A stretch of 64,000 nt of DNA, taken from NCBI GenBank assembly GCA_001788095.1, contig MFZX01000029.1, forward strand, positions 4,620 to 68,619. Direction: 5' to 3'. This DNA is from Candidatus Roizmanbacteria bacterium RIFCSPHIGHO2_12_FULL_37_23. Its GTDB lineage: Bacteria; Patescibacteriota; Microgenomatia; UBA1406; HO2-37-13b. The notes under the pieces were generated by a model, which was not told the origin of the DNA, did not search any database, and was given only the letters and a program-made list of their open reading frames with translations. Shown here in pieces: positions 3,346-59,515 of the stretch; the stretch's first letter is position 1; each line of letters opens with the position of its first letter. Both the position numbers and the translations under genes were made by a program.

Positions 3346-4019
3346 TTATATTTGATCCTCGAAATAGGGTATATATATCGTCAAAATTACGAGACACGGG
3401 ATATACTTCAAGTTTTGGGACACGGTTAAGTAGAAATCCTCAAAATCATAGAATTGTCATGAAGCAGGTACATGGTGATAAAATCGTGAAAATTACAGCA
3501 CAGAATATAGATCGAGAAAAGTTTCAGAACACAGATGGAATGATAACTCGATTGAACGGTGTAACACTAATAGTCAAAACTGCAGACTGCGTTCCAATAA
3601 TTTTTGCTGATACCTTATCGAGTATCTTGGGTGTTTCGCATCAAGGATGGAGAGGAACACTACTGAATTTACCTCTGAAGATGGTTAATTTTTTGGCTAA
3701 AGAAGGGGTTCAGAAAGAGAATATTATTGTTGCAATTGGCCCGTCAATAAGCGCCTGCTGTTACAAAATATATGGAGATAGATTAGATCTATTTAGAAAG
3801 ACATTTCCTCGTTATGTAGACAGAATTTTTATAAAGAACAACAATGATATATTTCTAAACTTGGGATACCTTGCATATCTGCAACTCGTGGATGCAGGCA
3901 TACAAAAAAATAATATTGACTACTTTCCATTTTGTACAAGTTGTCACAAAGATCACTTTTATTCGTATAATAGAGATAAGTCTACAAAGCGGATGGAGAG
4001 TTGGATTGCTAAGTATTAG
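3342..4019 (+). CDS. pgeF: YfiH/PgeF family (DUF152, peptidoglycan editing factor / laccase-domain) protein
   Basis: Family motifs: QVHGDKIV, KTADCVPIIF, SHQGWRG and CCY in the C-terminal half. 4-nt overlap with the upstream gene. Confidence 0.8.
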   Translation: MIIFDPRNRVYISSKLRDTGYTSSFGTRLSRNPQNHRIVMKQVHGDKIVKITAQNIDREKFQNTDGMITRLNGVTLIVKTADCVPIIFADTLSSILGVSHQGWRGTLLNLPLKMVNFLAKEGVQKENIIVAIGPSISACCYKIYGDRLDLFRKTFPRYVDRIFIKNNNDIFLNLGYLAYLQLVDAGIQKNNIDYFPFCTSCHKDHFYSYNRDKSTKRMESWIAKY

Positions 4020-4047
4020 GTATTAAGTATTAAGTATTATGTATTAA
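4013..4047 (+). repeat. Heptamer tandem repeat array (GTATTAN)x5
   Basis: GTATTAG GTATTAA GTATTAA GTATTAT GTATTAA. The first unit contains the pgeF stop codon. The array ends 3 nt before the murC ATG. Confidence 0.9.
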
Positions 4048-4050
4048 TCT

Positions 4051-5463
4051 ATGCAAAATATTTATCTTGTCGGCATAAAAGGTGTTGGGATGACAGCTCT
4101 TGCTACATACTTAAAAGAGTGTGGAAATAATGTATGGGGCTCGGACATTCAAGATAAATTTCCTACAGATGAAGTTTTGCACGAGCAGCATATTAAAGTT
4201 CTCAAAGGGTTTTCGCCAAAAAATATTACTAATAATATTGACTTAGTTGTTACTACAGGAGCTCACGGAGGTCTTACAAATATAGAAGTCTTAACAGCAC
4301 AAGAGAAAGGTGTAAAAGTCATGACACTAGCAGAAGAAGTTGGACAACTGATGGATGGGTATGAAACAAAAATTACCATATGTGGTTCTCATGGAAAAAC
4401 AACAACAACGTCACTTATTTCTTTCATATTGAGGCAACTTAGATTGTCATCGAGCCACCTTGTCGGAACATCTAAATTTTCTGGTTATTATGGGGGATCT
4501 TTTGGAGGATCTGATTATTTGGTTGTTGAAGGAGACGAGTATGTTTCATCTCTAGGAACTGATAGTACTCCCCGCTTCATGTACCAGAGTCCTGATTATA
4601 TTATTTGTACGAATATCGATTTTGATCACCCTGATGTATATAAAGATATCAATGCAGTAAAAAAGGTTTTTGTTGATTTTTTTAAAAAGTTAAAAAAGAA
4701 TCCTAAGGGGAGATTGATTTACTGCATAGATGATGTCGCATTGCGTAGGCTTGCAGAAGTTCTTCCTGAGGAAAAACGGATGTCATACGGTTTTTCTGAA
4801 GATGCCGACCTCGTATTGCACTTCATGCATACAGAGGAATTTCAAAGAGCAGTTTTTAGTGCGCGATTACATGGTGAACATCTTGGTGTTTTTAAATTAC
4901 CATTCTTGGGTCATCACAATGTTCAAAACGCAGGTTCTGCCATTGCGCTATCTATCTTACTATCGCTTGATCTCACAAAAGTGAAGTCTGCAATCGCTTT
5001 GTTTAAAGGACTATCGCGACGACTAGAGTTAATCTATAAAAAGAACAATATATATCTCTTCGACGATTATGCACATCATCCAAGAGAGATTAGAGCATTG
5101 CTTGAAGCTGTTCGAGAAAAGTTTCCGAGATCTCGAAGGATTTTAGTTTTCCAGCCCCATACATACACTCGAACAAAGATGCTTCTCAATGATTTTGTAC
5201 ATGCGCTAGGAGATGCTGATAAATCATATGTTATTGATATTTTTGCATCTGCTCGAGAAAAGACTGATGGGAAAATTACATCAAAAGATTTAGAAGTAAA
5301 AGCAAACCAGATGCATATTAAAACCATCTCGTATGTATCGGATAAAAAAATAATGAGCGAACTCGCAAAAGAGCTTAAAAGAGGTGATGTTGTTATTACA
5401 GCAGGCGCAGGTGATGTGTATAAATTACATGAAGGAATAATAAGCGTCATGAATAAGTCATAA
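4051..5463 (+). CDS. murC: UDP-N-acetylmuramate--L-alanine ligase
   Basis: N-terminal GIKGVGMTALA Rossmann motif typical of MurC. P-loop GSHGKTTTT. DDYAHHPREI. Confidence 0.9.
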   Translation: MQNIYLVGIKGVGMTALATYLKECGNNVWGSDIQDKFPTDEVLHEQHIKVLKGFSPKNITNNIDLVVTTGAHGGLTNIEVLTAQEKGVKVMTLAEEVGQLMDGYETKITICGSHGKTTTTSLISFILRQLRLSSSHLVGTSKFSGYYGGSFGGSDYLVVEGDEYVSSLGTDSTPRFMYQSPDYIICTNIDFDHPDVYKDINAVKKVFVDFFKKLKKNPKGRLIYCIDDVALRRLAEVLPEEKRMSYGFSEDADLVLHFMHTEEFQRAVFSARLHGEHLGVFKLPFLGHHNVQNAGSAIALSILLSLDLTKVKSAIALFKGLSRRLELIYKKNNIYLFDDYAHHPREIRALLEAVREKFPRSRRILVFQPHTYTRTKMLLNDFVHALGDADKSYVIDIFASAREKTDGKITSKDLEVKANQMHIKTISYVSDKKIMSELAKELKRGDVVITAGAGDVYKLHEGIISVMNKS

Positions 5464-5469
5464 ATTAAT

Positions 5470-6399
5470 ATGGGGATTTTAGAACAGCTTGAAGCAAAAC
5501 TGGGAAAAGGAAGAGTGCGACAAAATATCAGTTTAGCTCCTTATACTACGTTCAAGGTTGGGGGACCAGTTGAATTCTATTTCGAAGCAAAAACCGATGA
5601 AGATATTATTAATGCTATACAAACTGCATCCAATCTAAACATTCCTTTTTTTGTTTTTGGTGGTGTTTCTAATGTCGTCGTTTCAGACAAAGGAATGAAA
5701 GGATTAGTTATTAAGAATCAGGTCATGTACAAAGAGATTGCTGAAGATAGAAGTGGTCATGTTATTCTTAAAGTATCTTCAGGATACTCTATGACTCGAT
5801 TAGCAAAAGAAACGGCAGATGAAGGGTGGTCAGGGCTTGAATATCACGTCGGTCTTCCTGGAACTCTCGGTGGGGCTTTATACATGAATTCTAAGTGGTA
5901 TATAAATCCAGGAAAGAATAGACAGGAGGTTTATGTTGGTGACCCGCTTGTGAGAGCAGGTTTAGTGACTCGAGATGGAGTATTTAAAAGTGTTCCAAAG
6001 TCATATTTTAATTTTGCATATGATTATAGTATTTTGCATGAAACAAAGGAGATTGTATTATGGGCTGAGTTCAAATTAGCTAAGATTTCTCCCGAAGAGA
6101 CAAAATTGCATGCGCAAACCTCAATGGATTACCGAAAACAAACTCAACCAATGGGAATAGCATCATCTGGTTGTTATTTTAAAAACGTAAAAGGTGAATC
6201 GGTTGGTAAAATGATAGATGAACTTGGTTTAAAAGGATATTCGATTGGTGGAGCACAGATATCTGAAAAACATGCAAATTTTATCGTTAATACAGGAAAT
6301 GCAACAAGCGAAGATGTTAAAAATTTGGTTACTTTTATAAAAAAGAGAGTAAAAGAGAAGTATGGAATAGACCTCGAAGAGGAAGTATTGACAATCTAG
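5470..6399 (+). CDS. murB: UDP-N-acetylenolpyruvoylglucosamine reductase
   Basis: FAD-binding N-terminus: LAPYTTFKVGGPVEFY, GGVSNVV. C-terminal SGCYFKN, GGAQISEKHANFIVN. Confidence 0.9.
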   Translation: MGILEQLEAKLGKGRVRQNISLAPYTTFKVGGPVEFYFEAKTDEDIINAIQTASNLNIPFFVFGGVSNVVVSDKGMKGLVIKNQVMYKEIAEDRSGHVILKVSSGYSMTRLAKETADEGWSGLEYHVGLPGTLGGALYMNSKWYINPGKNRQEVYVGDPLVRAGLVTRDGVFKSVPKSYFNFAYDYSILHETKEIVLWAEFKLAKISPEETKLHAQTSMDYRKQTQPMGIASSGCYFKNVKGESVGKMIDELGLKGYSIGGAQISEKHANFIVNTGNATSEDVKNLVTFIKKRVKEKYGIDLEEEVLTI

Positions 6400-6428
6400 T
6401 AGTTGCTCGAGGTTTTGATATTACGTAT

Positions 6429-7778
6429 ATGGATAATAGTGAGGATTCATTTATCGTCAGAGGAGGGAAGCCGTTGAAGGGACAAATACAGCTTTCAGGA
6501 GCTAAGAATGTTGCATTGAAAGTACTTATTGCAGCATTGCTTTTTGATAGTCCCATCACCTTCAAAAATATTCCTCGCATCAGAGACATCAATGAATTAC
6601 TCCATCTTATAAACAAACTTGGAGCACAAGCCGATTTTACTGATTCGAATACCGTGGTGGTTGATAGTCATGGACTCTCTTCAGATACTATTGATCTTTT
6701 GCATGCGGCAAAAATTAGAGCTTCTTTTATGTTTTTTGCTCCCCTACTATACCGTTTTGGTAAAGCTTTTATTCCTAATCCTGGAGGATGCAGGCTCGGA
6801 GCTCGGCCCATAGATAGGCATATTAGTATGCTTCAAGCGTTTGGAGTAAAGGTAACATATAATTCTGAAACGGGCTTTTATGAATCACAACTCAATGGTA
6901 ATTCTATCAGAGGCACAACATTTACGTTTGACAAACCAACACACACAGGAACAGAATTGGCTATAATGCTTGCATCCCGCGCAGATGGCGAATCTGTGAT
7001 TAAGAATGCTGCTCAAGAACCAGAAATCGATGATCTTATTAACTTGCTCAATCAGGCTGGAGCACACATAAAAAGAGAAAACGGCTCGGTTTTAATAAAA
7101 GGAACACCAATTCTGCATTATAAAAATGATTCCTTCACCATTATGGTGGATAGAAATGAAGCTCCTACTTTTGCATCATTTGGAATAACAACAAGAGGTG
7201 ATATCATGATTTACGGTATAAAAGAAAGTGACATTGAGTATTTTGCAACTGAGATAAAAAATATTGGCGCAGGTGTAGAAGTTTTACCTGAAGGTATACG
7301 ATTTTACTATAAAGGTGAGTTAAAAAGTAGTAGTATTACGACAGGACCGCATCCAGGATTTATGACCGATTGGCAGGGTCCATGGGCTGTGATGATGACA
7401 CAGGCACATGGTGTTTCTACAATCCATGAAACGATATTTGAAGATCGGTTTGGATATGTCTCCGAACTCCAAAAACTCGGTGCTGACATAGAATTTTATC
7501 AGCCAGAATTAGATAATCCAAGGAAAATTTACCAATTTAATATTGAGAATGATGATAATTTGAAGTCGCTACAACAAGCTATTCGTATAAAAGGACCAAC
7601 TCAATTGCATAATGGAGTTATGGATGTTAAAGATCTCCGCGCTGGAGCGACAATACTTATCGCTGCCTGTAGCGCAGAAGGTGAATCTGTCATAAATGGA
7701 GCATCAATTATAGATAGGGGCTATGAAGACATAGAGAGAAAGTTACAGAGTTTAGGGGCAGCTATTAAACGCGTGTGA
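6429..7778 (+). CDS. murA: UDP-N-acetylglucosamine 1-carboxyvinyltransferase
   Basis: GAKNVALKVLIAALL. The catalytic Cys loop is PGGCRLGARPID. Length 449 aa. Confidence 0.9.
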   Translation: MDNSEDSFIVRGGKPLKGQIQLSGAKNVALKVLIAALLFDSPITFKNIPRIRDINELLHLINKLGAQADFTDSNTVVVDSHGLSSDTIDLLHAAKIRASFMFFAPLLYRFGKAFIPNPGGCRLGARPIDRHISMLQAFGVKVTYNSETGFYESQLNGNSIRGTTFTFDKPTHTGTELAIMLASRADGESVIKNAAQEPEIDDLINLLNQAGAHIKRENGSVLIKGTPILHYKNDSFTIMVDRNEAPTFASFGITTRGDIMIYGIKESDIEYFATEIKNIGAGVEVLPEGIRFYYKGELKSSSITTGPHPGFMTDWQGPWAVMMTQAHGVSTIHETIFEDRFGYVSELQKLGADIEFYQPELDNPRKIYQFNIENDDNLKSLQQAIRIKGPTQLHNGVMDVKDLRAGATILIAACSAEGESVINGASIIDRGYEDIERKLQSLGAAIKRV

Positions 7779-8479
7779 ATATTTCCGTTGTATCTTGGAA
7801 TATTTTAAAAGGAGAGCGATATGATGAAATTCTTCAGGGACTTAAGGAACTCAACGCCGATGTCTTTGGACTTCAGGAGGTTGCTGTTTGGAAAGATAAT
7901 AGAGGAAACGTCGGAGAAAAATTAGCACAGGAACTTGGATACCATCTTTATTTTTGTCCTGCATTGCCATCTCAACAGTCGGGAAGACCATACGATCTGG
8001 GAAACGCAATTCTTTCACGTTTTGAATGTAAAAACCAAGTATGTCATCAATTGAGTCCTGCTGATTTATATGGTGATGATTGGACTACAGAGCCGAGAAA
8101 TGCAGTTGAAGTAGGGATGAATAGTAATGAAACAGATGTTCGTGTCATAAATACACATGTTTATTATCCCCGATATGGAGGGAAGTCTGAAATTAGCGAA
8201 ATGCACTTTCGCAATCTCGATGCTTTACTCTCGTACGAGAAAACTATTCTTGTTGGAGACTTTAACGCTACAATGAGTACAGAACCGATAAAAAAAATTA
8301 ACAAGATACTACCTAATGTTGACAGAGAAAACGAAGATTTTACCTTTATAGATAGGGAGCAGCAAAAAATGAAAATTGACCATATTTTTGTAAGTAAAGA
8401 TATAATAGTAAAAAGTTTTGAAGTTGTTGAGACCAAAGGATCAGATCACCTACCTATTAAAGTTGTGATTAAAGTATAA
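7775..8479 (+). CDS. Endonuclease/exonuclease/phosphatase (EEP) family protein, paralog 2
   Basis: WNILKG...DVFGLQEV and GSDHLPI motifs. Same architecture as the 2569-3345 protein. 4-nt overlap with the murA stop. Confidence 0.75.
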   Translation: MNISVVSWNILKGERYDEILQGLKELNADVFGLQEVAVWKDNRGNVGEKLAQELGYHLYFCPALPSQQSGRPYDLGNAILSRFECKNQVCHQLSPADLYGDDWTTEPRNAVEVGMNSNETDVRVINTHVYYPRYGGKSEISEMHFRNLDALLSYEKTILVGDFNATMSTEPIKKINKILPNVDRENEDFTFIDREQQKMKIDHIFVSKDIIVKSFEVVETKGSDHLPIKVVIKV

Positions 8480-8528
8480 ATTTTATAGGATTTATTGAAA
8501 ATCCCAAGGTTGCGAACCTAAACAACCT

Positions 8529-9779
8529 CTAAGGTTGAATTTTCGGTTTTAATTTTCCTGAGTGTGGAAGGCTAGTATACACTGTCATTGCAGGCCAGAT
8601 AGTTGATTTTTCACCTACGAGTATTCCAGGCATTGTTGAAACACGTACTCCAAATGACGTTTGTTTCCCGCATATAACTCCTAATGCATGTTCGGTTGTA
8701 TTTATCTCTGATTTATCCATATAGCTTAAAATGGGTTTTCTATCCATTCGTTTATTCGCTGTAATAAATCCTGCTCCGAGACGAGAAAAAGATCCAATTA
8801 CTGAATCACCAATAAAACCATCACCATGAAAATGAACGTCCTCCATAATAATAGAGCGTGCAATATCTGCATGAATTCCAATCTGAGCATTTTTTCCTAT
8901 ATCACTATCACGGATTACAGAATGGTCTCCGATATACACATTTCTACCAATATATGTATGACCTTTTATATGAGCACCGTCTAAGATAATCGCACCATCA
9001 TCTATATAGGCCGTATCTTCAATAATTGCCGTTTTTGCAATACTTGCATTAGGGCTAATGTATCCTATTTTTGTAAGTGCAAGATGTGTGAAGAGTTCTA
9101 AAAGATGCCATGGGTATTTTAAAGTAGGAATATACTGCTCCTTTTCTATTTTATGCATAAGGACTTTTTTATCATGAGCATAATCTGAAATAGCTTCTTC
9201 ATATGCATACTGATGGGATGTGCGGTTTTTGAGAGAGTGGATGAAGTCAGGTTTGAAAAGAAATGCTGACGTTGAGCGATAATGTGATGGTTCAGTGCCG
9301 GCTCGAGGTTTTTCAATAATACTCTTAATTCTTTCGCCGTCAAGATCAAGAGCTCCATATTCGTGAATACCTTCCTCATATTTCGCAGGGATGAGCCCAT
9401 CGAGGTCTTCAGTATTAAAGCGATCAATTAATGTTTTAAAAAGATTTTTTTCAAGAATATGATATGCATTAGGAATAATAAAAGACTCGTTGATAAGATC
9501 TGCAGCACATAATAGAGCATTTCCTTGTCCTTTAGGACTATCCTGATAGGCATATTGAATGGTGACACCGAGGTCCTCGCCTTTTTGTAAGTGCGTAGTA
9601 ATTACCTTATCACCCTTAGGAACAACGATTACAAACTGATGAATTCCACATTCGCGAAGGTCCTCAATAACATATTCAATTAAGGGCCTTCCATAAAGAC
9701 GAGTCATCGCTTTATGTCCCAGTGTTTCCAGAGGGAAAAACCTTTTATTTGCACCTGCCACAAGAAGTACCGCTTGCAT
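8529..9779 (-). CDS. Sugar-phosphate nucleotidyltransferase with C-terminal left-handed beta-helix (GlmU-like/bifunctional)
   Basis: N-terminal LLVAGANKRF...GRPLIEYVIEDL nucleotidyltransferase fold. The C-terminal half has hexapeptide-like repeats (IGRNVYIGDHSVIRDSDIGKNAQIG). Confidence 0.6.
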   Translation of the reverse strand: MQAVLLVAGANKRFFPLETLGHKAMTRLYGRPLIEYVIEDLRECGIHQFVIVVPKGDKVITTHLQKGEDLGVTIQYAYQDSPKGQGNALLCAADLINESFIIPNAYHILEKNLFKTLIDRFNTEDLDGLIPAKYEEGIHEYGALDLDGERIKSIIEKPRAGTEPSHYRSTSAFLFKPDFIHSLKNRTSHQYAYEEAISDYAHDKKVLMHKIEKEQYIPTLKYPWHLLELFTHLALTKIGYISPNASIAKTAIIEDTAYIDDGAIILDGAHIKGHTYIGRNVYIGDHSVIRDSDIGKNAQIGIHADIARSIIMEDVHFHGDGFIGDSVIGSFSRLGAGFITANKRMDRKPILSYMDKSEINTTEHALGVICGKQTSFGVRVSTMPGILVGEKSTIWPAMTVYTSLPHSGKLKPKIQP

Positions 9780-9803
9780 AATGTTATTATATAATAAGCA
9801 ATT

Positions 9804-10949
9804 ATGAAATGGCGATTAGTCGCTATTGTTAGTATTCGAACGATATGTCTTTTGACTGTTGCATTTCTTTCAGCACGACTTATTCCATATGCAGGTAATT
9901 TTCCATATAGAGACCTCCTCATAAGTTATAATTTATCTCAAGTACTGTACTCTTGGGCCAATTTTGATGGAGCTCACTATATAAATATTGCTCGAGATGG
10001 ATACCATCAGTTCGATCAAGCCTTCTTTCCTCTTTATCCCTTGATGATTCGTGCTCTCGGAGGACTCTTACATAAAGCTCATCTTTCTGCGGGATTGTTA
10101 GTATCTTATACCGGATTTTTTATTGGTATATATTATTTTCTAAAACTTTTTTCCTTTAAATATGACAAAAAGACAAGCGAATGGATTGTGATTTTTTTGG
10201 TGACGTTTCCTACTGCCTTTTTCTTTACTGCCGTATATACCGAAGGAATATTTCTCATGTTTATATGTTTGAGCCTTTATTTTTTTTATCAAAAAAAACA
10301 TGATAGAGCAGGAATTTTCGCTTTTTTAGCATCACTTACTCGCCTTCAGGGTTTCCTACTGATAATACCTTTCGTTATGTATTTCTATGAGAAGAAAAAG
10401 AATTTTATAAAAAATATTACTTACATGTGGTTCAAGCATCCTATTATATTGATCTCTCCATTTGCTGGACTTGGCGTCTATATGATCTTTCTCCAAGCAA
10501 AATTCGGAAATCCTCTTTATTTTTTTACTTCCCAACCTGCTTTTGGGGCGAATAGGTCAACATCACTCATATTACTTCCACAGGTTTATTACCGTTATCT
10601 ACGTATTTTTTTTACTGCAGATTTCACCTACCAATATTGTGTAGCCATGGTTGAGTTTATTTTTTTCAATTTTGTCTTAATTACAAGTCTTTTGTTTTTT
10701 ATCAATACTTGGCGAAGAAAAGACACATTTGGTATAGGAATTTCAATTTTTTCGCTTGCACACATCCTGCTTCCTCCACTTACGGGAACTTTTTCTTCAA
10801 TACCTCGATATGCTTTATTTGCATGGGCAATGTTTATACTTCTCGCTCAAATAAAGCACGTCGGAATAAAATACATCGTTATAGTTTTGTTTAGTATTCT
10901 TCAGATCATCTTCGCTTCACTTTTCATCCAAGGTTATTTTATAAGTTGA
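9804..10949 (+). CDS. Polytopic membrane protein, GT-C / PIG-V-like mannosyltransferase family (putative)
   Basis: About 10 hydrophobic segments. The N-terminal loop motif WANFDGAHYINIARDGY is typical of PIG-V/GT-C-like glycosyltransferases. Confidence 0.5.
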   Translation: MKWRLVAIVSIRTICLLTVAFLSARLIPYAGNFPYRDLLISYNLSQVLYSWANFDGAHYINIARDGYHQFDQAFFPLYPLMIRALGGLLHKAHLSAGLLVSYTGFFIGIYYFLKLFSFKYDKKTSEWIVIFLVTFPTAFFFTAVYTEGIFLMFICLSLYFFYQKKHDRAGIFAFLASLTRLQGFLLIIPFVMYFYEKKKNFIKNITYMWFKHPIILISPFAGLGVYMIFLQAKFGNPLYFFTSQPAFGANRSTSLILLPQVYYRYLRIFFTADFTYQYCVAMVEFIFFNFVLITSLLFFINTWRRKDTFGIGISIFSLAHILLPPLTGTFSSIPRYALFAWAMFILLAQIKHVGIKYIVIVLFSILQIIFASLFIQGYFIS

Positions 10950-10999
10950 TGCTCGGTTTGCAGTTTTCATATTAAGGATTATCGTGCTACAATATATAC

Positions 11000-11962
11000 A
11001 TGAAAAAAGTAGTTGTTATAGGTGGTGGTACAGGGACGTTTACTGTTTTGAGCGGAATCAAAGAAGAACCTTATGAAATTTCAGTGATTGTCTCTATGAT
11101 GGACAGTGGTGGAAGTACTGGTCGGCTCAGAGATCAGTTTGGTGTATTGCCACCAGGGGATATACGTCAATGTTTAGTAGCTCTTTCAGACGCCCCTGAT
11201 TTATGGCGTAAGCTTTTTCTTTATAGATTTGAAAATGGAGATTTTAGAGGTCATAATTTTGGTAATATTTTCCTAGCTGCGTTAGAAAAAACTACATCCG
11301 ATTATCAACAGGTTATTGATAGTGCTTCATATATATTACAAACAAAAGGAGATGTTATTCCCGTAACCTTTGACAAAGTTCATCTTTGTGCTGATTATGA
11401 GGATGGTGAAACACTTGAATCTGAAGAGCTTATTGATACAGCCTCACACAAAAAAAGTAGGATTTCAAAAGCATATCTTAAGCCTCGAGCAAAGGCTAAT
11501 CCACGAGCGCTCCAAGCTATACATAAGGCAGATTATATTATTATCGGACCTGGGGATCTTTATACGAGTCTTATTCCCAACCTACTCGTAGATGGAGTTC
11601 AGAAAGCTTTAGATAAATCAGAGGCAAAAATTATCAACTTTATGAACCTCATGACAAAATCAGGACAAACAACGCACTATACTGCCTCCGAACATGTTAA
11701 TGATTTAAAGAAATATATTGGAAGGAATATTGATTGTATTTTTGTTAATACAGGCAGAATTCGAGACGACATCCTTGATCATTATAGAAAATATAATGAA
11801 GATATTGTCGAAGACGACCTTGAAATGAATAGCAATATAATTCGTATAGATTTGGTTGCTAATGTGCGTTACAATGCTTCTAAGGCAGATAGGCACCCAA
11901 GGAGTATTCTGCGACATGATTCTGAAAAAGTTCTCAATGCACTTAAAAAGATTTTAACATAA
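11000..11962 (+). CDS. YvcK/CofD-family (UPF0052, gluconeogenesis factor-like) protein
   Basis: VVIGGGTGTFTVLSG, MMDSGGSTGRLRD, PPGDIRQC, IGPGDLYTSLIPNLLV. Confidence 0.8.
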   Translation: MKKVVVIGGGTGTFTVLSGIKEEPYEISVIVSMMDSGGSTGRLRDQFGVLPPGDIRQCLVALSDAPDLWRKLFLYRFENGDFRGHNFGNIFLAALEKTTSDYQQVIDSASYILQTKGDVIPVTFDKVHLCADYEDGETLESEELIDTASHKKSRISKAYLKPRAKANPRALQAIHKADYIIIGPGDLYTSLIPNLLVDGVQKALDKSEAKIINFMNLMTKSGQTTHYTASEHVNDLKKYIGRNIDCIFVNTGRIRDDILDHYRKYNEDIVEDDLEMNSNIIRIDLVANVRYNASKADRHPRSILRHDSEKVLNALKKILT

Positions 11963-12348: not shown

Positions 12349-12366
12349 GAATGGGCTTCTAGGTTT

Positions 12367-13404: not shown

Positions 13405-13433
13405 ATATACTATAAGTTTTCTATAATGAGTAT

Positions 13434-17074: not shown

Positions 17075-17089
17075 TACAATATTCTTAGC

Positions 17090-18894: not shown

Positions 18895-18909
18895 TACCTC
18901 GTATAAAAT

Positions 18910-20181: not shown

Positions 20182-20182
20182 A

Positions 20183-21310: not shown

Positions 21311-21312
21311 CT

Positions 21313-40748: not shown

Positions 40749-40753
40749 ATTTT

Positions 40754-42939: not shown

Positions 42940-42964
42940 TATAAGGTTGTGTTAGAATAGATAC

Positions 42965-43270: not shown

Positions 43271-43271
43271 T

Positions 43272-44651: not shown

Positions 44652-46005
44652 TCAAAAGGAATTTATACCGGTAATAGGTTTGGAAATTCATGTTCAGCTG
44701 GCAACAAAAACAAAACTTTTTGATAGGGGCTCAGCTGATTGGTTCGGAAAAAAACCCAATACTGTTGTTGGTCCTCTTGCATTAGGTTTACCAGGAACGC
44801 TTCCTGTACCAAACAAAAAAGCAATCCAATGGGCGATGCTCCTTGGAAAATCGCTTAATTGCAAAATAAATAAGATTTCGAAATTTGACAGAAAGCACTA
44901 TTTTTATCCAGATTTACCAAAAGCCTACCAAATTAGCCAATATGATCAACCTTTTTCCTATGACGGCTATTTTGAATTCATTTCCCCCGTAACTGGTACT
45001 AAAAAGAACATTACTATTACGCGAGTACACCTTGAAGAAGATACTGGTAAACTTATTCACCAAGGGAATGAAACACTCATAGATTTTAACCGTTCAGGAG
45101 TTCCTCTTGCTGAGATTGTGACAGAACCTGATTTTGACAACTCAGATGATGTAAAAAGATTTCTTGAGGAACTGCAGGTACATGTTCGTTATTTGGGAAT
45201 TTCAGACGCGGATATGGAAAAAGGGTCAATGAGACTCGAACCGAATATTTCAGTCAGGCATAGGAAGTCAGAGCAGAAACTACCTAACTATAAGGTGGAA
45301 ATAAAGAACATTAATTCATTTCGATACGCTAAGCAGGCGATTGAGTTTGAAATTAAACGGCAGGAGCACTTGATTCGATCGGGTGAAACTCCCGTTCAGG
45401 AAACACGAGGGTATGATGAATTCAAAGGTGTTACATTTTCACAGCGTCGTAAAGAGGGAGCCGAAGACTATAGATATTTTCCAGAACCTGATATTCCACC
45501 TTTTATTTTCGATGACGACTTTCTCAAGGTTATTGATGATATGATGCCGGAGTTACCACATGAACGGCTTGCAAGGTTTATAGCTCAGGGAATAAAACCG
45601 GGGGATGCATATGTTTTAACACGATCAAAGTCGATTTCGGATACCTATGAACTTATTATAAAGGAAATAAAATCTAGTGTTGAGAAACTTACACATAAAA
45701 GTAAAACACTTGAAGGAGAAATTGCTAAACTCATTGTTAATAAAAAAGTATCTATAGAGAAGGATACGAGAAGTGTCATTAAGGAAATTATTCAACAACT
45801 TACGCCGCAAGAAACGAATGAAGAAGAATTAATACAGGTCATCGAATCAGTTATAGAAACAAACCAAAAACCAGTGCAAGATTTTAAGAATGGAAAGGAA
45901 AATTCTATAACATTTCTCATTGGACAAGTAATGAAAACAATGAAAGGGAAAGCCGATCCAGTTGGAGTAAGAAAATCATTAGAAAAAAAACTCACCGATA
46001 CCTAA
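44644..46005 (+). CDS. gatB: Asp/Glu-tRNA(Asn/Gln) amidotransferase subunit B
   Basis: VIGLEIHVQL, HYFYPDLPKAYQISQ, RVHLEEDTGK, NRSGVPLAEIVTEPD. Confidence 0.9.
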   Translation: MNNQKEFIPVIGLEIHVQLATKTKLFDRGSADWFGKKPNTVVGPLALGLPGTLPVPNKKAIQWAMLLGKSLNCKINKISKFDRKHYFYPDLPKAYQISQYDQPFSYDGYFEFISPVTGTKKNITITRVHLEEDTGKLIHQGNETLIDFNRSGVPLAEIVTEPDFDNSDDVKRFLEELQVHVRYLGISDADMEKGSMRLEPNISVRHRKSEQKLPNYKVEIKNINSFRYAKQAIEFEIKRQEHLIRSGETPVQETRGYDEFKGVTFSQRRKEGAEDYRYFPEPDIPPFIFDDDFLKVIDDMMPELPHERLARFIAQGIKPGDAYVLTRSKSISDTYELIIKEIKSSVEKLTHKSKTLEGEIAKLIVNKKVSIEKDTRSVIKEIIQQLTPQETNEEELIQVIESVIETNQKPVQDFKNGKENSITFLIGQVMKTMKGKADPVGVRKSLEKKLTDT

Positions 46006-46015
46006 TACCTAATAC
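45995..46015 (-). repeat. Heptamer tandem repeat (GTATTAG-type, reverse orientation), 2 exact + 1 degenerate unit
   Basis: The plus strand reads CCGATAC CTAATAC CTAATAC. The gatB stop codon TAA lies inside the first exact unit. Confidence 0.7.
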
Positions 46016-46046
46016 ACAATCCCCCGCGCTACGTTATAATATCAGC

Positions 46047-49540: not shown

Positions 49541-49549
49541 AAATTTGTC

Positions 49550-50269: not shown

Positions 50270-50527
<258 letters not shown>

Positions 50528-50536
50528 CCAAAGTTT

Positions 50537-51317: not shown

Positions 51318-51325
51318 ATAATTAT

Positions 51326-52846: not shown

Positions 52847-52847
52847 C

Positions 52848-53705
52848 ATGAATTTTAGACAAGTCAGAAAAAAAGCGAAAACAGTTCAAAATGTAAAAAA
52901 AATAACAAATGCTATGCAAATGGTTTCTGCAGTAAAAATGAGAAAATCACAGAGGGAAGCTCTAGAGGGTAGAGAATATCGTGCGATGCTAGATGAGGTA
53001 ATTTCTGAGGTGTTAAGTAGCAAATCTATGTTAAAGGAAAGTAAAATACCATGGATCGAAACAACTGTAGGAAGTAGAAGTCTTTGTATCCTCATCTCAT
53101 CAAACAAAGGTTTATGCGGATCATTCCATTCGTACCTTTTCAAAGAAGTACTTGATAAGCAAGATTTAACAACAGCTGATTTTATCGTGATAGGTAAGAA
53201 AGCTGCAGAGTTTATAACACGAACTAGGACCAAAATTATAGCTGATTTTTCAAGCCAAATTCCTTTTATTGATAATGTTTCAGCTGTTTTCTCAGTTATA
53301 GAAGAGAGATATGTTAGTGGCCAATATAGTAAGGTGTTTGTTATTTATAACAAATTTATAACCTCCTTTAAAAATGAACCAACAATTGAAAAACTATTAC
53401 CTATCACAGAAATAAAACAGCTTGATAAAGAAAATAAGGAAATAAGAACGGCAGAAGCTGATTATTTGCTTGAACCATCAGGAAGCGATTTGCTCAAACC
53501 ACTTATTGATGATTATTTAAAAGAAAAGATACGTGGAGCCATTCGTGACAGTGAAGCCGCAGAACATTCTGCACGCATGATGGCAATGAAAAGTGCTACA
53601 GACAATGCCACAGAACTTATTTTTAACCTGACATTACTAGGAAATAAACTTAGACAAACACAAATTACAAACGAATTACTTGATATGGTTGCAGCTACCT
53701 CGTAG
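52848..53705 (+). CDS. atpG: F0F1 ATP synthase subunit gamma
   Basis: ITNAMQMVSAVKMRK N-terminus and ITNELLDMV C-terminus. Confidence 0.9.
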   Translation: MNFRQVRKKAKTVQNVKKITNAMQMVSAVKMRKSQREALEGREYRAMLDEVISEVLSSKSMLKESKIPWIETTVGSRSLCILISSNKGLCGSFHSYLFKEVLDKQDLTTADFIVIGKKAAEFITRTRTKIIADFSSQIPFIDNVSAVFSVIEERYVSGQYSKVFVIYNKFITSFKNEPTIEKLLPITEIKQLDKENKEIRTAEADYLLEPSGSDLLKPLIDDYLKEKIRGAIRDSEAAEHSARMMAMKSATDNATELIFNLTLLGNKLRQTQITNELLDMVAATS

Positions 53706-53754
53706 GTATTAGGAATTACGTATTACGTATAACGTATTAAGTATTACGTATTAT
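53706..53754 (+). repeat. Heptamer tandem repeat array (GTATTAN)x7
   Basis: GTATTAG GAATTAC GTATTAC GTATAAC GTATTAA GTATTAC GTATTAT. It starts immediately after the atpG stop and ends 14 nt before the atpD ATG. Confidence 0.9.
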
Positions 53755-53756
53755 GA

Positions 53757-55145
<1,389 letters not shown>

Positions 55146-55147
55146 AT

Positions 55148-55573
55148 ATGCTTCACTTGAAAATAATTACTCCAAAAAAGGTGGTACTTGAGCATGAAGT
55201 CCGTTCTGTCACAGCTCCAGGAGCTGATGGAGAATTTACTGTTTTGCCACGACATACAAAACTTTTTAGTTTGTTGAAGGAGGGAATCGTAAGAATTGAA
55301 GATGAGAATAAAGGAGAATCCTTTTTTTCAATTGGCGGTGGATATCTTCAAACTAATGGAAAAGAAATTAATCTCTTAGTTTCAAGAGCATACGGACAAG
55401 ATGAGATTGATGAAGCCGAGGTCAGAAAAGCGAGGGAGAAAGCTGAGAGATTGCTCACTGAGACTTCAGACGAAACACAGCGCCAGCAGGCGCTTCAAAC
55501 TCTTCGTCGCTCTATGATCGATCTTAAAGTCTTTGGAAAAATAAAGCGCAAAAAATCCATTAATACAAATTAA
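55148..55573 (+). CDS. atpC: F0F1 ATP synthase subunit epsilon
   Basis: 141 aa. N-terminal beta-sandwich (LKIITPKK...VTAPGADGEFTVLPRH) plus C-terminal helices. Confidence 0.85.
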   Translation: MLHLKIITPKKVVLEHEVRSVTAPGADGEFTVLPRHTKLFSLLKEGIVRIEDENKGESFFSIGGGYLQTNGKEINLLVSRAYGQDEIDEAEVRKAREKAERLLTETSDETQRQQALQTLRRSMIDLKVFGKIKRKKSINTN

Positions 55574-55618
55574 GATTCTCCTGTAGCTTCAGGGATGACG
55601 AATTAATTTTAAAAACTG

Positions 55619-55647
55619 TTGACAAGCTTTACTGTATTTGATACCAT
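55619..55647 (+). promoter_or_regulatory. Candidate promoter of the tRNA-Ala/23S unit (TTGACA-N17-TACCAT) with A/T-rich upstream tract
   Basis: Perfect -35 TTGACA at 55619-55624, 17-nt spacer, TACCAT at 55642-55647. AATTAATTTTAAAAA lies just upstream. Confidence 0.5.
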
Positions 55648-55798
55648 AACACTACCTATTTTATGCTTAATAGAACTAAGCAGTGTCGCTAGGCATTCGG
55701 AGCGTGCACAAACGTCTCCTATCAGCCTTCGATCAACAGCGAAAGTTGTGTTGATTTAAGTAAGTGCACGAATAAGTTGAGTCTATTTTAACCTTTTT

Positions 55799-55872
55799 GG
55801 GCCTGTAGCTCAGCTGGCCAGAGCGCTCGGTTTGCATCCGAGAGGTCAGGGGTTCAAATCCCCTCGGGTCCA
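55799..55872 (+). tRNA. tRNA-Ala (anticodon TGC)
   Basis: Acceptor GGGCCTG/CGGGTCC with the G3:U70 identity pair, anticodon loop TTTGCAT, T loop TTCAAAT. Confidence 0.9.
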
Positions 55873-55924
55873 CCGCACTTTGACAATTAAACAGGAAGAA
55901 CGCAATTAATTAATGCAAATCAAA

Positions 55925-55951
55925 TCTTAAGTTTTGATTTGCGGGATATTG
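55925..55951 (+). other. 5' strand of 27-bp 23S processing stem
   Basis: TCTTAAGTTTTGATTTGCGGGATATTG pairs with 59320-59346 (CAATATCCCGCAAATTGAAACTTAAGA): 25 Watson-Crick pairs plus 2 G.U pairs. Confidence 0.8.
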
Positions 55952-56096
55952 TAATTAAAGCTAGTGGTGAATGCCTAGGTAATTTGAGCCGAGGAAGGAC
56001 GTGTGTATGGACACGATATCGTCGATAAGTCTCCTAACAGACATTACAATCGGCGGTTTCCCAATGGGATAACCCCACTGATAGTAATATCAGTGA

Positions 56097-56115
56097 CCCC
56101 CGATTTTATCGGGGG
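56097..56115 (+). repeat. rRNA hairpin repeat copy 1 (CCCCCGAT TTT ATCGGGGG)
   Basis: Seen directly. 8-bp stem, TTT loop variant. Confidence 0.9.
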
Positions 56116-56171
56116 AGGATACCTGGTGAACTGAAACATCTCAGTAACCGGAGGAAAAGAAATCAAAATGT

Positions 56172-56197
56172 CTCAATTAGACGCAAGTTTAGTTGAG
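56172..56197 (+). repeat. 26-nt hairpin with GNRA loop (CTCAATTAGAC GCAA GTTTAGTTGAG), apparent insertion in 23S domain I
   Basis: 11-bp stem (2 G.U pairs). It lies between GAAATCAA and CGAGATTCC, which are contiguous in the E. coli 23S as I recall it (GAAAUCAACCGAGAUUCC). Confidence 0.6.
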
Positions 56198-56200
56198 CGA

Positions 56201-56231
<31 letters not shown>

Positions 56232-56241
56232 GGAGCCTAAA

Positions 56242-56258
56242 CCCCGATTTAATCGGGG
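56242..56258 (+). repeat. rRNA hairpin repeat copy 2 (CCCCGAT TTA ATCGGGG)
   Basis: Exact 17-mer. Confidence 0.9.
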
Positions 56259-56542
56259 GGTTGCGGGAGTCTGCATACCTACACTTTTTTTCTAGATGAA
56301 TGTCATGGAAAGGACAACCAAAGAAAGTGATAGTCTTGTAGTTAAAAGAAGAAAAGTGTAAGCGGAATTTCCCAAGTACCACGGGACACGGAAAACCTTG
56401 TGGGAAGCTAGGGCGGTCATGCTCTAAGGCTAAATACTCAAATTAACCGATAGTGAACCAGTACCGTGAGGGAATGGTGAAAAGTCCCCCGGCGAGGGGA
56501 GTGAAATAGAACCTGAAACCGCTAGCTAACAAGCAGTGAGAG

Positions 56543-56559
56543 CCCCGATTTAATCGGGG
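56543..56559 (+). repeat. rRNA hairpin repeat copy 3 (CCCCGAT TTA ATCGGGG)
   Basis: Exact 17-mer. Confidence 0.9.
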
Positions 56560-56651
56560 TAATCGCGTGCCTATTGAAGAATGAGCCAGCGAGTTTTCAA
56601 GAGCTGCTTAAGGTTAACCAATAAAAAGTTGGGTAGCCATAGCGAAAGCAA

Positions 56652-56669
56652 TCCCACCGAAAGGCGGGA
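56652..56669 (+). repeat. Second hairpin family copy 1 (TCCCACC GAAA GGCGGGA)
   Basis: 20/21 identical to 56738-56758, including the AA prefix. One A/C mismatch in the stem. Confidence 0.8.
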
Positions 56670-56739
56670 ACGTCTGAATAGGGCGTTGGTAGCTTTTGAA
56701 AGACCCGAAACTGGGTGATCTAACCATGGGCAGGGTGAA

Positions 56740-56757
56740 TCCCGCCGAAAGGCGGGA
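56740..56757 (+). repeat. Second hairpin family copy 2 (TCCCGCC GAAA GGCGGGA)
   Basis: Perfect 7-bp stem with a GAAA tetraloop. Confidence 0.8.
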
Positions 56758-57147
56758 GGAAGCCCGAACCCGTTATCGGTGAAATGATATGGGATGACCT
56801 GTGGTTAGGGGTAATATGCTAATCGAACCCAGAGATAGCTGGTTCTCCCCGAGATATATTTAGGTATAGCCTTCCTGCTCATAAAACACCTGGGGTAAAG
56901 CACTGAATAGTCCAGAGAGTCTAGTACAATTTGGATTAATCAAACTCTGAATACAGTCGTGTTTTGGCGGGAGGAGTCAGACTCACTAGGATAAGCTAGC
57001 GTGGTCGAAAGGGAAACAGCCCAGACTCCCATCTAAGGTCTCTAAATGGTTATTAAGTGGGAAAGGTAGTGAGATTTCAAAGACAGCCGGGAGGTTGGCT
57101 TAGAAGCAGCCATCCTTTAAAGAAAGCGTAACAGCTCACCGTAATAG

Positions 57148-57164
57148 CCCCGATTTAATCGGGG
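57148..57164 (+). repeat. rRNA hairpin repeat copy 4 (CCCCGAT TTA ATCGGGG)
   Basis: Exact 17-mer. Net insertion relative to the recalled E. coli segment CACUGGUCGAGUCGGCCUGCGCGGAAG. Confidence 0.9.
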
Positions 57165-57573
57165 ATGAGGTCTTGCGCCGAAAATGATCGAGGCTTAAAT
57201 AATCTACCGAAGATGGAGATGCTTGTGCTTTGCACAAGTGTGGTAGGGGAGCGTCCCGTGTACGATGAAGATCTACCGTAAGGTGGGTTGGAGTTAACGG
57301 GAGTGAGAATGCTGGCATAAGTAGCGATTCTCCCGCTGAAAATGCGGGATGCCGTATGTCCAAGGTTTCCTCAGCAACGTACATCGGCTGAGGGTTAGTC
57401 GGATCTAAGGGCTCTGCCGATAGGCGAGTCTCGATGTCCAAGCTGTTAATATTCAGCTACTCTTTATAAAGCGTTACTACTTTTATACTAACGAAATCTG
57501 ATAATCGAAGCCTTCTATATGAGGGTCTAAATGGTAAGCACCACCAATTGGTGGGACCGAGCCATGAATGCGA

Positions 57574-57590
57574 CCCCGATTTTATTGGGG
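57574..57590 (+). repeat. rRNA hairpin repeat copy 5 (CCCCGAT TTT ATTGGGG)
   Basis: Variant with a TTT loop and one G.U pair. Confidence 0.85.
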
Positions 57591-57753
57591 GAGCTCGATG
57601 CGTTAAGTTTCCGGGAAAAGGTATAAAAGGAGTTTTATAAGGATCCGTACCGCAAACCAACACAGGTGGACTGGTAGAGTATACTAAGGCAATCGAGTAA
57701 TGGTGGTTCAAGGAACTCGGCAAATCAGCTGGACGTAACTTTGGAGATGTCCT

Positions 57754-57770
57754 TCCCGCCTTTGGCGGGA
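57754..57770 (+). repeat. Second hairpin family copy 3 (TCCCGCC TTT GGCGGGA)
   Basis: Same 7-bp stem as 56740-56757 with a different loop. Confidence 0.7.
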
Positions 57771-57980
57771 CACAGCAAATGATTTCCATCTAACTGTTTA
57801 CCAAAAACACAGCTCCCTGCAAACCGGAAACGGGAAGTATAGGGGGTGAGGCCTGTCCAGTGCCGGTAAGTTAAGGATCGGGGTTAATCCCGATATCACG
57901 AAAGTAATATCGGGAAAGGCTCTGATTCAAGCTCCGGTGAACGACAGCTCTAACTCTGAGAGTTCTAAGGTAGCGTAGTC

Positions 57981-58018
<38 letters not shown>

Positions 58019-58225
58019 TAAGATGGAAACTGTCTTGAACCATTGCTCGGCGAAATTGAAATGGCTGTGAAGATGCGGCCTTCCTGCACCAGGACAAGAA
58101 GACCCCGGGAGCTTTACTGAAGCTTATTATTGACAAGAAATTATTAACTGTCTAGCGTAGGAGGGAGTTTTGGCAGCAATGCCGGACACCAATGAAACAC
58201 CTCTCTTTGATAATTTTGAGTCTTA

Positions 58226-58242
58226 CCCCGATTTAATCGGGG
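58226..58242 (+). repeat. rRNA hairpin repeat copy 6 (CCCCGAT TTA ATCGGGG)
   Basis: Exact 17-mer. Confidence 0.9.
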
Positions 58243-58446
58243 GACAGTAGTAGGTGGTCAGTTTAACTGGGGCGGTTTCCTCCAAAAGGGTAACGGAGGA
58301 GCGCAAAGGTTGGCTTTTTCCGGATGGAAATCGGAATGTACGTGTAAACGCATAAGCCAGCTTAACTGTGAGGAATACAATCCGAGCAGATCCGAAAGGA
58401 GGCGTTAGTGATCCCCCGATCGGTTATGATTACCGGTGGGGCTTAT

Positions 58447-58477
<31 letters not shown>

Positions 58478-58625
58478 GGTCTCCCCTAAGAGTTCACATC
58501 GACGGGGAGGTTCGGCACCTTATGAGCCAAATAATTGGGGTGCCTTCAGTAGCAATACTGATAAAAAAATGTGACTTATAACGGTGGACTCCATAAATGC
58601 CCGATGATAGAATATCATCGTTATT

Positions 58626-58797
58626 ATGGACAATACCGTGGGAAGTCTAACTCGAGCTCAAAAATCTGTTATCATAGGGTCTATTCTTGGAGATGGCTAA
58701 TTTTAGAATTCGTTTTCTAAAATCTAGCTTACCAAGATTACATGATCTTATTGGTAAAAATCTTATACCTTCAATGAAGTATAAACTTGAGTTATGA
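58626..58797 (+). pseudogene. Decayed LAGLIDADG homing endonuclease ORF
   Basis: ATG at 58626 gives MDNTVGSLTRAQKSVIIGSILGDG then a stop. A +1 shift continues NFRIRFLKSSLPRLHDLIGKNLIPSMKYKLEL then a stop. Only the first LAGLIDADG motif region survives. Confidence 0.55.
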
Positions 58798-58811
58798 CCC
58801 CGTAGAGACTT

Positions 58812-58828
58812 CTCCGATTTAATCGGGG
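58812..58828 (+). repeat. rRNA hairpin repeat copy 7 (CTCCGAT TTA ATCGGGG), inside the intron
   Basis: Variant with CTCC on the 5' strand (one G.U pair). It lies just downstream of the endonuclease remnant. Confidence 0.85.
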
Positions 58829-58985
58829 AGAGTTCAATAAAAAATTGAGCTAATACGTCACCCCCAGATTTCAGATATCTGGGTGAAGATATAGTCCGCG
58901 CCATTAGTAATAATGGATTATCATGCGATGTCGGCTCATCGCATCCTGGGGCCGTAGCAGGTCCCAAGGGTTGGTCTGTTCGCCC

Positions 58986-59033
<48 letters not shown>

Positions 59034-59216
59034 ACTCTATCCGGTGCAGGCGTTTGGATTCTTGAAAAGGCTCTTCTCTAGTACGAGAGGACCGAGAAGA
59101 GGGAATCCCTGGTGTATCAGTTGTCCTATAAGGGCATTGCTGAGTAGCTATATTCCTATGAGATAAGTACTGAAAGCATCTCAAGTACGAAGCTTACTTT
59201 AAGATGAGGAATCCAC

Positions 59217-59233
59217 CCCCGATTTAATCGGGG
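59217..59233 (+). repeat. rRNA hairpin repeat copy 8 (CCCCGAT TTA ATCGGGG)
   Basis: Exact 17-mer near the 23S 3' end. Confidence 0.9.
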
Positions 59234-59319
59234 ATAAATCCCCCGGTAGATGACCGGGTTGATAGGCGCATGGTGTAAGTCCAGTAATGGATTTAGCCTA
59301 TGCGTACTAATGGATGATT

Positions 59320-59346
59320 CAATATCCCGCAAATTGAAACTTAAGA
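59320..59346 (+). other. 3' strand of 27-bp 23S processing stem
   Basis: Complementary to 55925-55951. Confidence 0.8.
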
Positions 59347-59353
59347 ATAGCAT

Positions 59354-59374
59354 GTATTACGTATTATGTATTAA
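59354..59374 (+). repeat. Heptamer tandem repeat array (GTATTAN)x3
   Basis: GTATTAC GTATTAT GTATTAA, immediately after the 23S processing stem. Confidence 0.85.
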
Positions 59375-59466
59375 GGATCTAATTCTTTTGACCCCCTGTA
59401 TTTGATCTATTGCAATTTGTTTTATCTTTTATTACTATCAAGAGACATGGGCAAGTTTCCTATGGC

Positions 59467-59515
59467 ATTATACGTAATACCTAAAACGAAATACCTAATA
59501 CCTAATACCTAATAT
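59467..59515 (-). repeat. Heptamer tandem repeat array, reverse orientation, x7
   Basis: The plus strand reads ATTATAC GTAATAC CTAAAAC GAAATAC CTAATAC CTAATAC CTAATAT. The last unit overlaps the topA ATG (59514). Confidence 0.9.

Follow-up and report, generated by a model that had tools for sequence, protein, structure and literature searches.

Why should one heptamer recur in tandem where one gene stops and the next begins? The question is raised by 64,000 nucleotides of Candidatus Roizmanbacteria bacterium RIFCSPHIGHO2_12_FULL_37_23 (GenBank assembly GCA_001788095.1, contig MFZX01000029.1, positions 4,620 to 68,619 of the forward strand), the whole of which we call “the window.” The host is a Candidatus Roizmanbacteria population, known as metagenome-assembled genomes (MAGs) from the Rifle aquifer, within the Candidate Phyla Radiation (CPR, or Patescibacteria). 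An earlier note on this DNA had described five tandem arrays of the unit GTATTAN that touch stop and start codons, and had offered several roles for them. We find that they are very probably a dispersed heptanucleotide repeat family of the class known as short tandemly repeated repetitive (STRR) sequences or long simple sequence repeats (SSRs). As to why they lie as they do, the reading that we prefer, at about even odds (roughly 0.5), is that slippage generates the repeats and that they are kept in transcribed spacers only in orientations compatible with translation.

Five arrays of one heptamer

The existence of the five arrays is confirmed by independent scans. Tandem Repeats Finder reports period-7 arrays at 4010-4047 (5.4 copies), 45998-46015 (2.6), 53706-53753 (6.9), 59354-59373 (2.9), and 59470-59514 (6.4), and a unit-based scan gives 4013-4047 (forward, 5 units), 53706-53754 (forward, 7), 59354-59374 (forward, 3), and 59467-59515 (reverse, 7). 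A pattern of three GTATTAN units with at most two mismatches matches the window 16 times, against 0.02 matches expected from dinucleotide-preserving shuffles. The single hexamer GTATTA is at chance level (44 observed, ~38 expected), so that it is the tandem arrangement alone that stands out. According to Tandem Repeats Finder, the 64-kb window has no comparable array of any other heptamer unit. The arrays, and the spacer that separates the last two, are as follows.

4013-4047, forward strand: array 1, five units (GTATTAG GTATTAA GTATTAA GTATTAT GTATTAA), forward to pgeF and murC
45995-46022, reverse strand: array 2, GGATTGT GTATTAG GTATTAG GTATCGG as read on the reverse strand, reverse to gatB and dnaE
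53706-53754, forward strand: array 3, seven units (GTATTAG GAATTAC GTATTAC GTATAAC GTATTAA GTATTAC GTATTAT), forward
59354-59374, forward strand: array 4, three units (GTATTAC GTATTAT GTATTAA), left arm of a convergent inverted pair
59375-59466, forward strand: spacer between the inverted arrays 4 and 5, 92 nt, beginning with GGATCTAAT
59467-59515, reverse strand: array 5, seven units (ATATTAG GTATTAG GTATTAG GTATTTC GTTTTAG GTATTAC GTATAAT as read on the reverse strand), reverse to topA

The periodicity had been called strict, which is right for phase but not for sequence, as arrays 3 and 5 contain degenerate units. Array 2 consists of some three good units plus one degenerate one, and near array 1, 3 nt out of phase, lies the degenerate unit GGATTGC (4003-4009).

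All arrays are non-coding and occupy four spacers between co-directional plus-strand genes or rRNA, and their neighbors (pgeF, murC, gatB, dnaE, atpG, atpD, 23S, and topA) are housekeeping genes. Gene calls bear out the codon contacts at pgeF, murC, gatB, atpG, atpD, and topA. Array 1 takes up the 31-nt spacer between pgeF and murC. The TAN of its first unit serves as the pgeF stop codon (TAG, 4017-4019), and the murC ATG follows at 4051, 3 nt past the array. The gatB stop TAA (46003-46005) falls within array 2. Array 3 starts immediately past the atpG stop (53703-53705), and 14 nt separate its end from the atpD ATG (53769); within it, the N=C units give rise to TACGTA palindromes. Array 4 begins 24 nt downstream of the 3' end of the 23S rRNA gene (59329), and the end of array 5 is overlapped by the topA ATG (59514-59516).

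Some of this contact is to be expected. The window is 37% GC and ~88% coding, with spacers between co-directional genes mostly of -4 to 50 nt, so that any non-coding insert in such a genome must touch gene ends. In addition, the unit always carries TAA on its reverse strand, and TAA or TAG on its forward strand if N is a purine; therefore arrays cannot sit inside open reading frames (ORFs), and their abutment to stops and starts is partly forced.

Do the arrays change in length? The earlier note had raised slippage-prone contingency repeats as one role and a comparison of array lengths between strains as a check. We made this comparison on ~10 contigs from several samples and metagenomes, all consensus assemblies at 99.8-100% identity (L001, L002, L123-L126, and L711-L717), and found no length polymorphism: every shared array was identical in length, with no indel. 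This leaves almost no credence for contingency or phase-variation loci, in which a gain or loss of units would switch the flanking genes. Slippage does act classically on short tandem repeats, and 7 is not divisible by 3, but the arrays lie outside ORFs and flank ATP synthase, murC, dnaE, and topA rather than surface, restriction-modification, or virulence genes. The contingency loci of Haemophilus, Neisseria, and Moraxella are likewise tandem short repeats near starts or promoters; their tracts vary in length and sit at surface or virulence genes, and the GTATTAN arrays do neither. The heptamer loci of Rehm et al. (PMC4692102) are likewise unusually stable.

What does change, in one strain contig (L124), is the sequence of array 1.

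4001-4049, no strand: hypervariable patch holding 12 of the 12 differences of L124 over 14,019 aligned bases, without a change in length

The L124 allele of array 1 reads GTATTAG GTATTAC GTATCAC GTATTAG GTATTAG, and the tail of pgeF goes from AKY to RRY; the window allele is also present in three other strain contigs. To judge by how tightly the differences cluster, the L124 allele looks like a short-patch replacement. A second localized replacement of this kind is seen where L126 is compared with the window: 9 of 11 differences over 5.9 kb fall within 55118-55146 (29 nt, the 3' end of atpD and the start of atpC), a junction without a heptamer array.

Beyond this population the picture is different. 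The nearest non-identical atpG has only 63% identity, and in relatives (related genera) with 70-81% atpD identity the atpG-atpD spacers are 21-37 nt long and without an array. The arrays are therefore lineage-specific expansions and not conserved regulatory sites.

A known class and a new unit

Is the GTATTAN unit itself special? When (GTATTAN)3 was searched in one genome per species, the matches listed spanned many phyla, some of them in genomes as GC-rich as 60-66%, and were often flanked by other heptamer repeats. Our initial reading was a conserved cross-phylum GTATTAN element. It was ruled out with three composition-matched shuffled heptamers scanned in viral contigs as controls, as these are about as common: with three units all three were, among the matches listed, as plentiful as GTATTAN, and with five units GTATTAN was found in 40 contigs versus 19 and 33 for shuffled controls.

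A background of 80 loci (L127-L206; 1.03 Mb of unselected sequence from a metagenome atpD scan, best match 81%, mostly unrelated phyla) holds ~26 period-7 SSRs per Mb versus ~1 per Mb of period 8, with highly diverse units. The general phenomenon is the known heptanucleotide SSR excess; what sets this case apart is a genome that keeps to one unit. Several of these background loci (L132, L139, L140, and L176) carry different heptamer units side by side. Elsewhere, GTATTAT occurs three times in each of seven copies of a 37-nt super-repeat (L099, 2809-3053), and a Flavobacterium isolate genome has a 36-unit GTATTAN array (L053, 1704-1955).

The oriented flanks of ~150 arrays hold no shared sequence, and a common flanking element, miniature inverted-repeat transposable element (MITE), or target-site duplication was rejected on that ground; in the window, only GGATCTAAT recurs, after arrays 4 and 5. 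Our literature search found no relevant paper on GTATTAN-type units.

There are close analogues. Rehm et al. 2015 (PMC4692102) described GGGAATC in Xanthomonas and GGGGA(C/T)T in Nostoc PCC 7120, repeats that are strongly intergenic and prefer aligned ORFs. They lie in the sense strand within 50 bp of a stop codon or overlapping it, and in the antisense strand within 50 bp upstream of ORFs (PMC4692102). There are ~70 convergent inverted pairs per genome, the loci are unusually stable, and no function was identified (PMC4692102). GTATTAN shares with these families a single heptamer, an intergenic location, the polarity, convergent pairs, and stable positions with sequence variation. Unlike them it is AT-rich with a single G and forms no G-quadruplex, the key property proposed by Rehm et al.; its host is a small-genome CPR bacterium at 37% GC, and it shows no preference for 4 units.

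The second analogue is TAACTGA, described by MacGregor 2015 (PMC4679880) in marine Beggiatoaceae, some cyanobacteria, and Bacteroidetes, for which a translational role was proposed. Its sets of 2-6 copies are mostly intergenic and end a few nt before starts, where a ribosome-binding site (RBS) would sit; canonical RBSs are rare in these spacers, some sets extend into the 3' end of the preceding ORF, and housekeeping genes are included (PMC4679880). One heptamer unit, contacts with gene ends, few RBSs, and housekeeping genes are common to TAACTGA and GTATTAN. The unit sequence differs, and TAACTGA has overwhelmingly one orientation toward starts, whereas GTATTAN occurs in both. GTATTAN is also denser, with 5 arrays in 64 kb against ~170 TAACTGA sets for ~5,330 genes in BOGUAY.

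The STRR sequences of heterocystous cyanobacteria (Calothrix) have been known since 1990 (Mazel et al. 1990, as cited in PMC4692102 and PMC4679880), and heptamers have been called the most abundant long SSR class in many bacteria, with polymerase slippage proposed as their origin (Mrazek et al. 2007, as cited in PMC4679880). As far as these secondary accounts go, STRR sequences and GTATTAN are alike in being tandem, non-coding heptanucleotides at many loci, and the period-7 excess appears in our unselected loci as well; STRR genomes carry several unit types where the GTATTAN window has one, and the phylum differs.

We assign the arrays to this class because of their period of 7, one unit at five loci, aligned genes, a convergent pair, stop contacts, and stable loci. 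The features that define the class (at least three head-to-tail 7-nt units, one unit at several loci, an intergenic position between aligned genes, polarity, convergent pairs, and stable loci) are all found here. The novel element is the unit and the phylum; the class itself is already known, and the finding, taken by itself, extends it only incrementally.

Orientation and what may select for it

Does the published polarity hold for this unit? We took 120 other bacterial loci with arrays and counted arrays within 30 nt of a stop or start codon. By neighborhood, 76 arrays were tandem, 25 convergent, 11 divergent, and 6 inside ORFs. Near stops, 49 arrays were forward and 15 reverse, and near starts a single array was forward as against 22 reverse (Fisher p = 7e-10; 2e-6 without pairs). 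These loci also hold 12 inverted pairs, every one of them convergent. For other heptamer units, the sense GC skew was +0.11 by stops and -0.14 by starts (p = 2.6e-5). GTATTAN arrays in the viral contigs L207-L326 (IMG/VR, many of them giant-virus MAGs) showed no orientation bias and no inverted pairs, so neither the ORF caller nor the sequence as such can have produced the rule. Within the window it is obeyed by four of five arrays (those at pgeF, atpG, and the 23S end forward, that at topA reverse), the gatB/dnaE array being ambiguous.

The published polarity is thus independently reproduced and extended to an AT-rich unit incapable of forming G-quadruplexes, which require at least four tracts of at least three G; the unit has one G, or two if N=G. 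Since GTATTAN cannot form them, the placement rule does not depend on them. The best-studied heptamer families are read via G-quadruplexes, and as a CPR unit incapable of them follows the same rules, the explanation must lie elsewhere.

Two candidates for it were set aside. A “healing” of double-strand breaks, or telomerase-like addition, at convergent pairs was rejected because polarity to the nearest gene end is seen in single arrays too, where that model gives no reason to expect it. Loading of Rho on a rut-like C-rich strand does not agree with the preference for the C-bearing strand immediately ahead of start codons; besides, Nostoc shows the same polarity, and cyanobacteria are not known to have Rho.

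What we prefer instead is a filter set by translation. Replication slippage in steps of 7 nt would generate and resize the arrays, and short-patch recombination or gene conversion between arrays, of which the L124 allele may be an instance, would keep a single unit family genome-wide. The spacers would be transcribed, and an array would survive only where its orientation suits the signals of translation. After a gene, the forward array would supply a GUAUUAR trailer with UAA or UAG in every unit, so that all three frames would be stopped within 21 nt. Before a start codon, the reverse array would supply a YUAAUAC leader that is G-poor, free of AUG, GUG, and UUG, predicted to be unstructured, and able to halt ribosomes arriving in any frame. 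Where Shine-Dalgarno sequences are hardly used, a leader of this sort should leave the following start codon accessible. Any function may be a passive “punctuation” between cistrons rather than a switch, and the arrays may perhaps be merely tolerated.

The evidence for this filter comes from codon content and predicted structure. Per array, N is a purine in 87% of positions in forward arrays after stops, which creates UAR, versus 47% in reverse arrays after stops (Mann-Whitney U test, p = 0.0013); the latter already carry UAA. The sense strand has stops in all three frames in 77 of 87 boundary arrays, and does so in arrays 1 and 5 of the window. The reverse strand has no G unless N supplies one and therefore cannot encode AUG, GUG, or UUG, and (NUAAUAC)7 has a predicted minimum free energy (MFE) of 0.0 for N = G, A, or T. 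The distance from the end of a reverse array to the ATG is 4-10 nt. In the window, the sense RNA of array 5 likewise has an MFE of 0.0 (predicted unstructured) and no start codon, and the start regions of topA and atpD rank 47th and 48th of 55 for structure, where 1st is the most structured. The purine bias creating UAA or UAG, and a reverse strand free of structure and start codons, point to translation or RNA processing.

Of the roles offered in the earlier note, one related to translation fits the evidence best, but one of its arguments falls away. The genes preceded by arrays do lack a Shine-Dalgarno sequence; this is a genome-wide trait, as only ~10 of 56 window genes have any match resembling one, and so it is not specific to them. 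The arrays bear on how translation starts between cistrons in organisms that barely use Shine-Dalgarno sequences.

Might the orientation instead record where the arrays arose? They could be neutral by-products without effect on expression, tandem duplications seeded at stop-codon contexts (TAA-G or TAG-G) and in start-proximal sequence, with polarity and register marking the site of origin. Of 34 stop-forward cases, 13 (38%) have array and gene stop in register where 4.9 are expected, and d = 0 is the commonest spacing of such arrays. The absence of arrays in relatives agrees with this, as do the general heptamer excess and the finding that GTATTAN is not privileged over shuffled controls. Seeding at stop codons, however, leaves the 22-to-1 exclusion of forward arrays before starts unexplained. 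It also gives no account of the missing purine bias in reverse arrays by stops or of a single unit at all five loci, and length stability over ~10 contigs is unexpected of unconstrained slippage tracts. We consider a wholly neutral origin unlikely, if still deserving of attention.

RNA processing is a further candidate. The forward strand reads GU|AUU, which matches the RN|WUU single-strand cleavage consensus of RNase E/G-type enzymes; in forward arrays after genes and after the 23S rRNA, cleavage would separate cistrons or form 3' ends, and such sites would be excluded from 5' leaders, where a cut would inactivate the mRNA. For Salmonella RNase E, RN|WUU consensus sites are documented to be enriched near stop codons and counter-selected at initiation regions (PMC5222698). 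In GTATTAN-type arrays we count 0.63 sense RNWUU motifs per unit when stop-proximal and 0.09 when start-proximal, in other heptamer units 0.32 and 0.05 (p = 0.004), and a forward array lies 24 nt past the 23S 3' end. Yet RNWUU is a short and degenerate motif, confounded with the very G/C and A/T content by which orientation is defined, and the positive placement of reverse arrays at the distance of a ribosome-binding site would be left without explanation. Processing sites as the main cause therefore seem to us distinctly unlikely.

Could the arrays act on transcription? Here the start signals of the genome matter. Of 56 window genes, 15 have an upstream TATAAT-like box whose end lies 4-9 nt (mode 6) from the ATG, a spacing that suggests leaderless mRNAs may be widespread in this genome. 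In the 24-nt divergent spacer at 9780-9803, -10 boxes for both flanking genes overlap. One such box lies beside an array.

46035-46040, forward strand: TATAAT box 6 nt upstream of the dnaE ATG (46047), a putative leaderless-type promoter

Array 2 ends 12 nt upstream of this box and covers its -35/UP position; it lies 31 nt before the dnaE start codon. Judging from this box, transcription of dnaE probably begins at a site of its own shortly past the array.

The earlier note had suggested that TATTAT or TATTAA hexamers within the units serve as -10 elements of internal promoters, or as UP elements, for the downstream genes. TATTAT differs from TATAAT at a single position of six, arrays 1 and 3 have N=T units close to their 3' ends, and the genome uses -10-proximal, leaderless-type starts. 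The spacing is wrong, though: the ATG follows the hexamer after 10 nt at murC and 14 nt at atpD where the mode is 6, and topA has none. A consensus scan calls no promoter at arrays 3-5, the L124 allele is without any TATTAT, and the topA array is oriented so that TATTAN is off the sense strand, as start-proximal arrays elsewhere are by 22 to 1. We accordingly give very little weight to internal promoters. An UP-like or -35 role is possible for the gatB-dnaE array only, just upstream of the dnaE TATAAT.

The arrays might also be operator-like sites for one DNA-binding or nucleoid protein that recognizes 7-bp heptads. The omega repressor binds heptads of this kind on inc18 plasmids. The TTTTGAT heptads of the Vibrio cholerae ctxAB promoter are sites for ToxT and H-NS (bioRxiv 10.1101/2021.05.14.444153). 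Like GTATTAN, both sets are contiguous 7-bp units, direct or inverted, beside genes; unlike it, they belong to single regulatory regions upstream of promoters and have a known protein, whereas GTATTAN is dispersed, mostly within operons, and polarized by gene sense. For an operator speak the one unit at all loci, the N=C unit as a near-perfect 7-bp palindrome (GTA-T-TAC) suited to a dimer, both orientations as expected where double-stranded DNA is recognized, and array 2 over the -35/UP position of the dnaE promoter. But the rules of placement and polarity are common to many unrelated units and genomes (PMC4692102), each of which would need its own protein; because they are independent of unit sequence, a single regulator is unparsimonious. 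Polarity is moreover set by gene sense and codon content, three of the four spacers are inside operons without a promoter-like box, the five array bases changed in the L124 allele show no sign of constraint, and no candidate regulator gene was identified. To an operator we therefore give little credence.

Returning to the translation filter, several observations weigh against it and should be kept in mind. Array 2, if counted with the gatB stop, runs against the polarity. The polarity statistics derive from other species, and those within this genome amount to five arrays in the ~79 kb seen. The start region of murC is among the more structured (rank 9 of 55), and the atpG-atpD array is atypical, with a purine at 2 of 7 N positions and TACGTA palindromes that fold (-7.8 kcal/mol). 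Co-transcription of the spacers is read solely from the absence of promoter-like boxes. The argument from codon content fails for GGGAATC, which has the same polarity and a G-strand without a stop triplet. Slippage accounts for the period but not for the use of a single unit, and the conversion step draws on one allele. A selective filter and an origin by duplication of stop-codon contexts also predict much the same pattern.

A bolder version of the idea would make heptamer arrays an active, orientation-dependent gene-boundary signal across many phyla, independent of the unit and spread by dedicated copying or conversion rather than random slippage. After genes, the G-strand would be a multi-frame stop module, an RNase cleavage module, or both, and before genes the G-free strand would be a ribosome landing pad independent of Shine-Dalgarno sequences. 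We think this quite improbable. Were it true, GTATTAN, an AT-rich unit incapable of G-quadruplexes in a minimal CPR genome, would be its cleanest natural test case.

The spacer behind the 23S gene and the downstream locus

Arrays 4 and 5, after the 23S gene, are inverted, convergent, and 92 nt apart, and the earlier note had proposed that they could pair. They can: 15-nt arms are 93% complementary and are paired in the MFE fold. The energy is nevertheless ordinary, with a z of -0.40 that is unremarkable against shuffles, and a hairpin function for the pair was dropped as its pairing energy is no better than that of shuffles. A scan for intrinsic terminators (a GC-rich hairpin followed by a U tract) called none at the arrays; the stem of the inverted pair is A/U-rich with a 92-nt loop. 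An Rfam search of 59330-59513 with E up to 1 returned no match, including none to 5S rRNA.

The 9-mer GGATCTAAT stands directly after both arrays (59375-59383 and 59516-59524), though these are opposite in orientation, and its second copy forms codons 1-4 of topA. This repetition may be the trace of a duplication.

Upstream of the 23S gene lies a tRNA-Ala (55799-55874). The rRNA genes appear to be unlinked, because there is no 16S or 5S gene near the 23S gene. The latter (55944-59329) measures 3386 nt against a 2925-nt model, and an insertion at ~58511-58917 resembles a group I intron (Rfam RF00028, E = 1.5e-4, under the gathering score).

Further downstream, 3-9 kb past the 3' end of the window, four of the strain contigs (L711-L714) carry a large serine recombinase (Resolvase/Recombinase/Zn_ribbon_recom). 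Beyond it, the genes present vary by contig; this is probably an integrated element at a variable locus.

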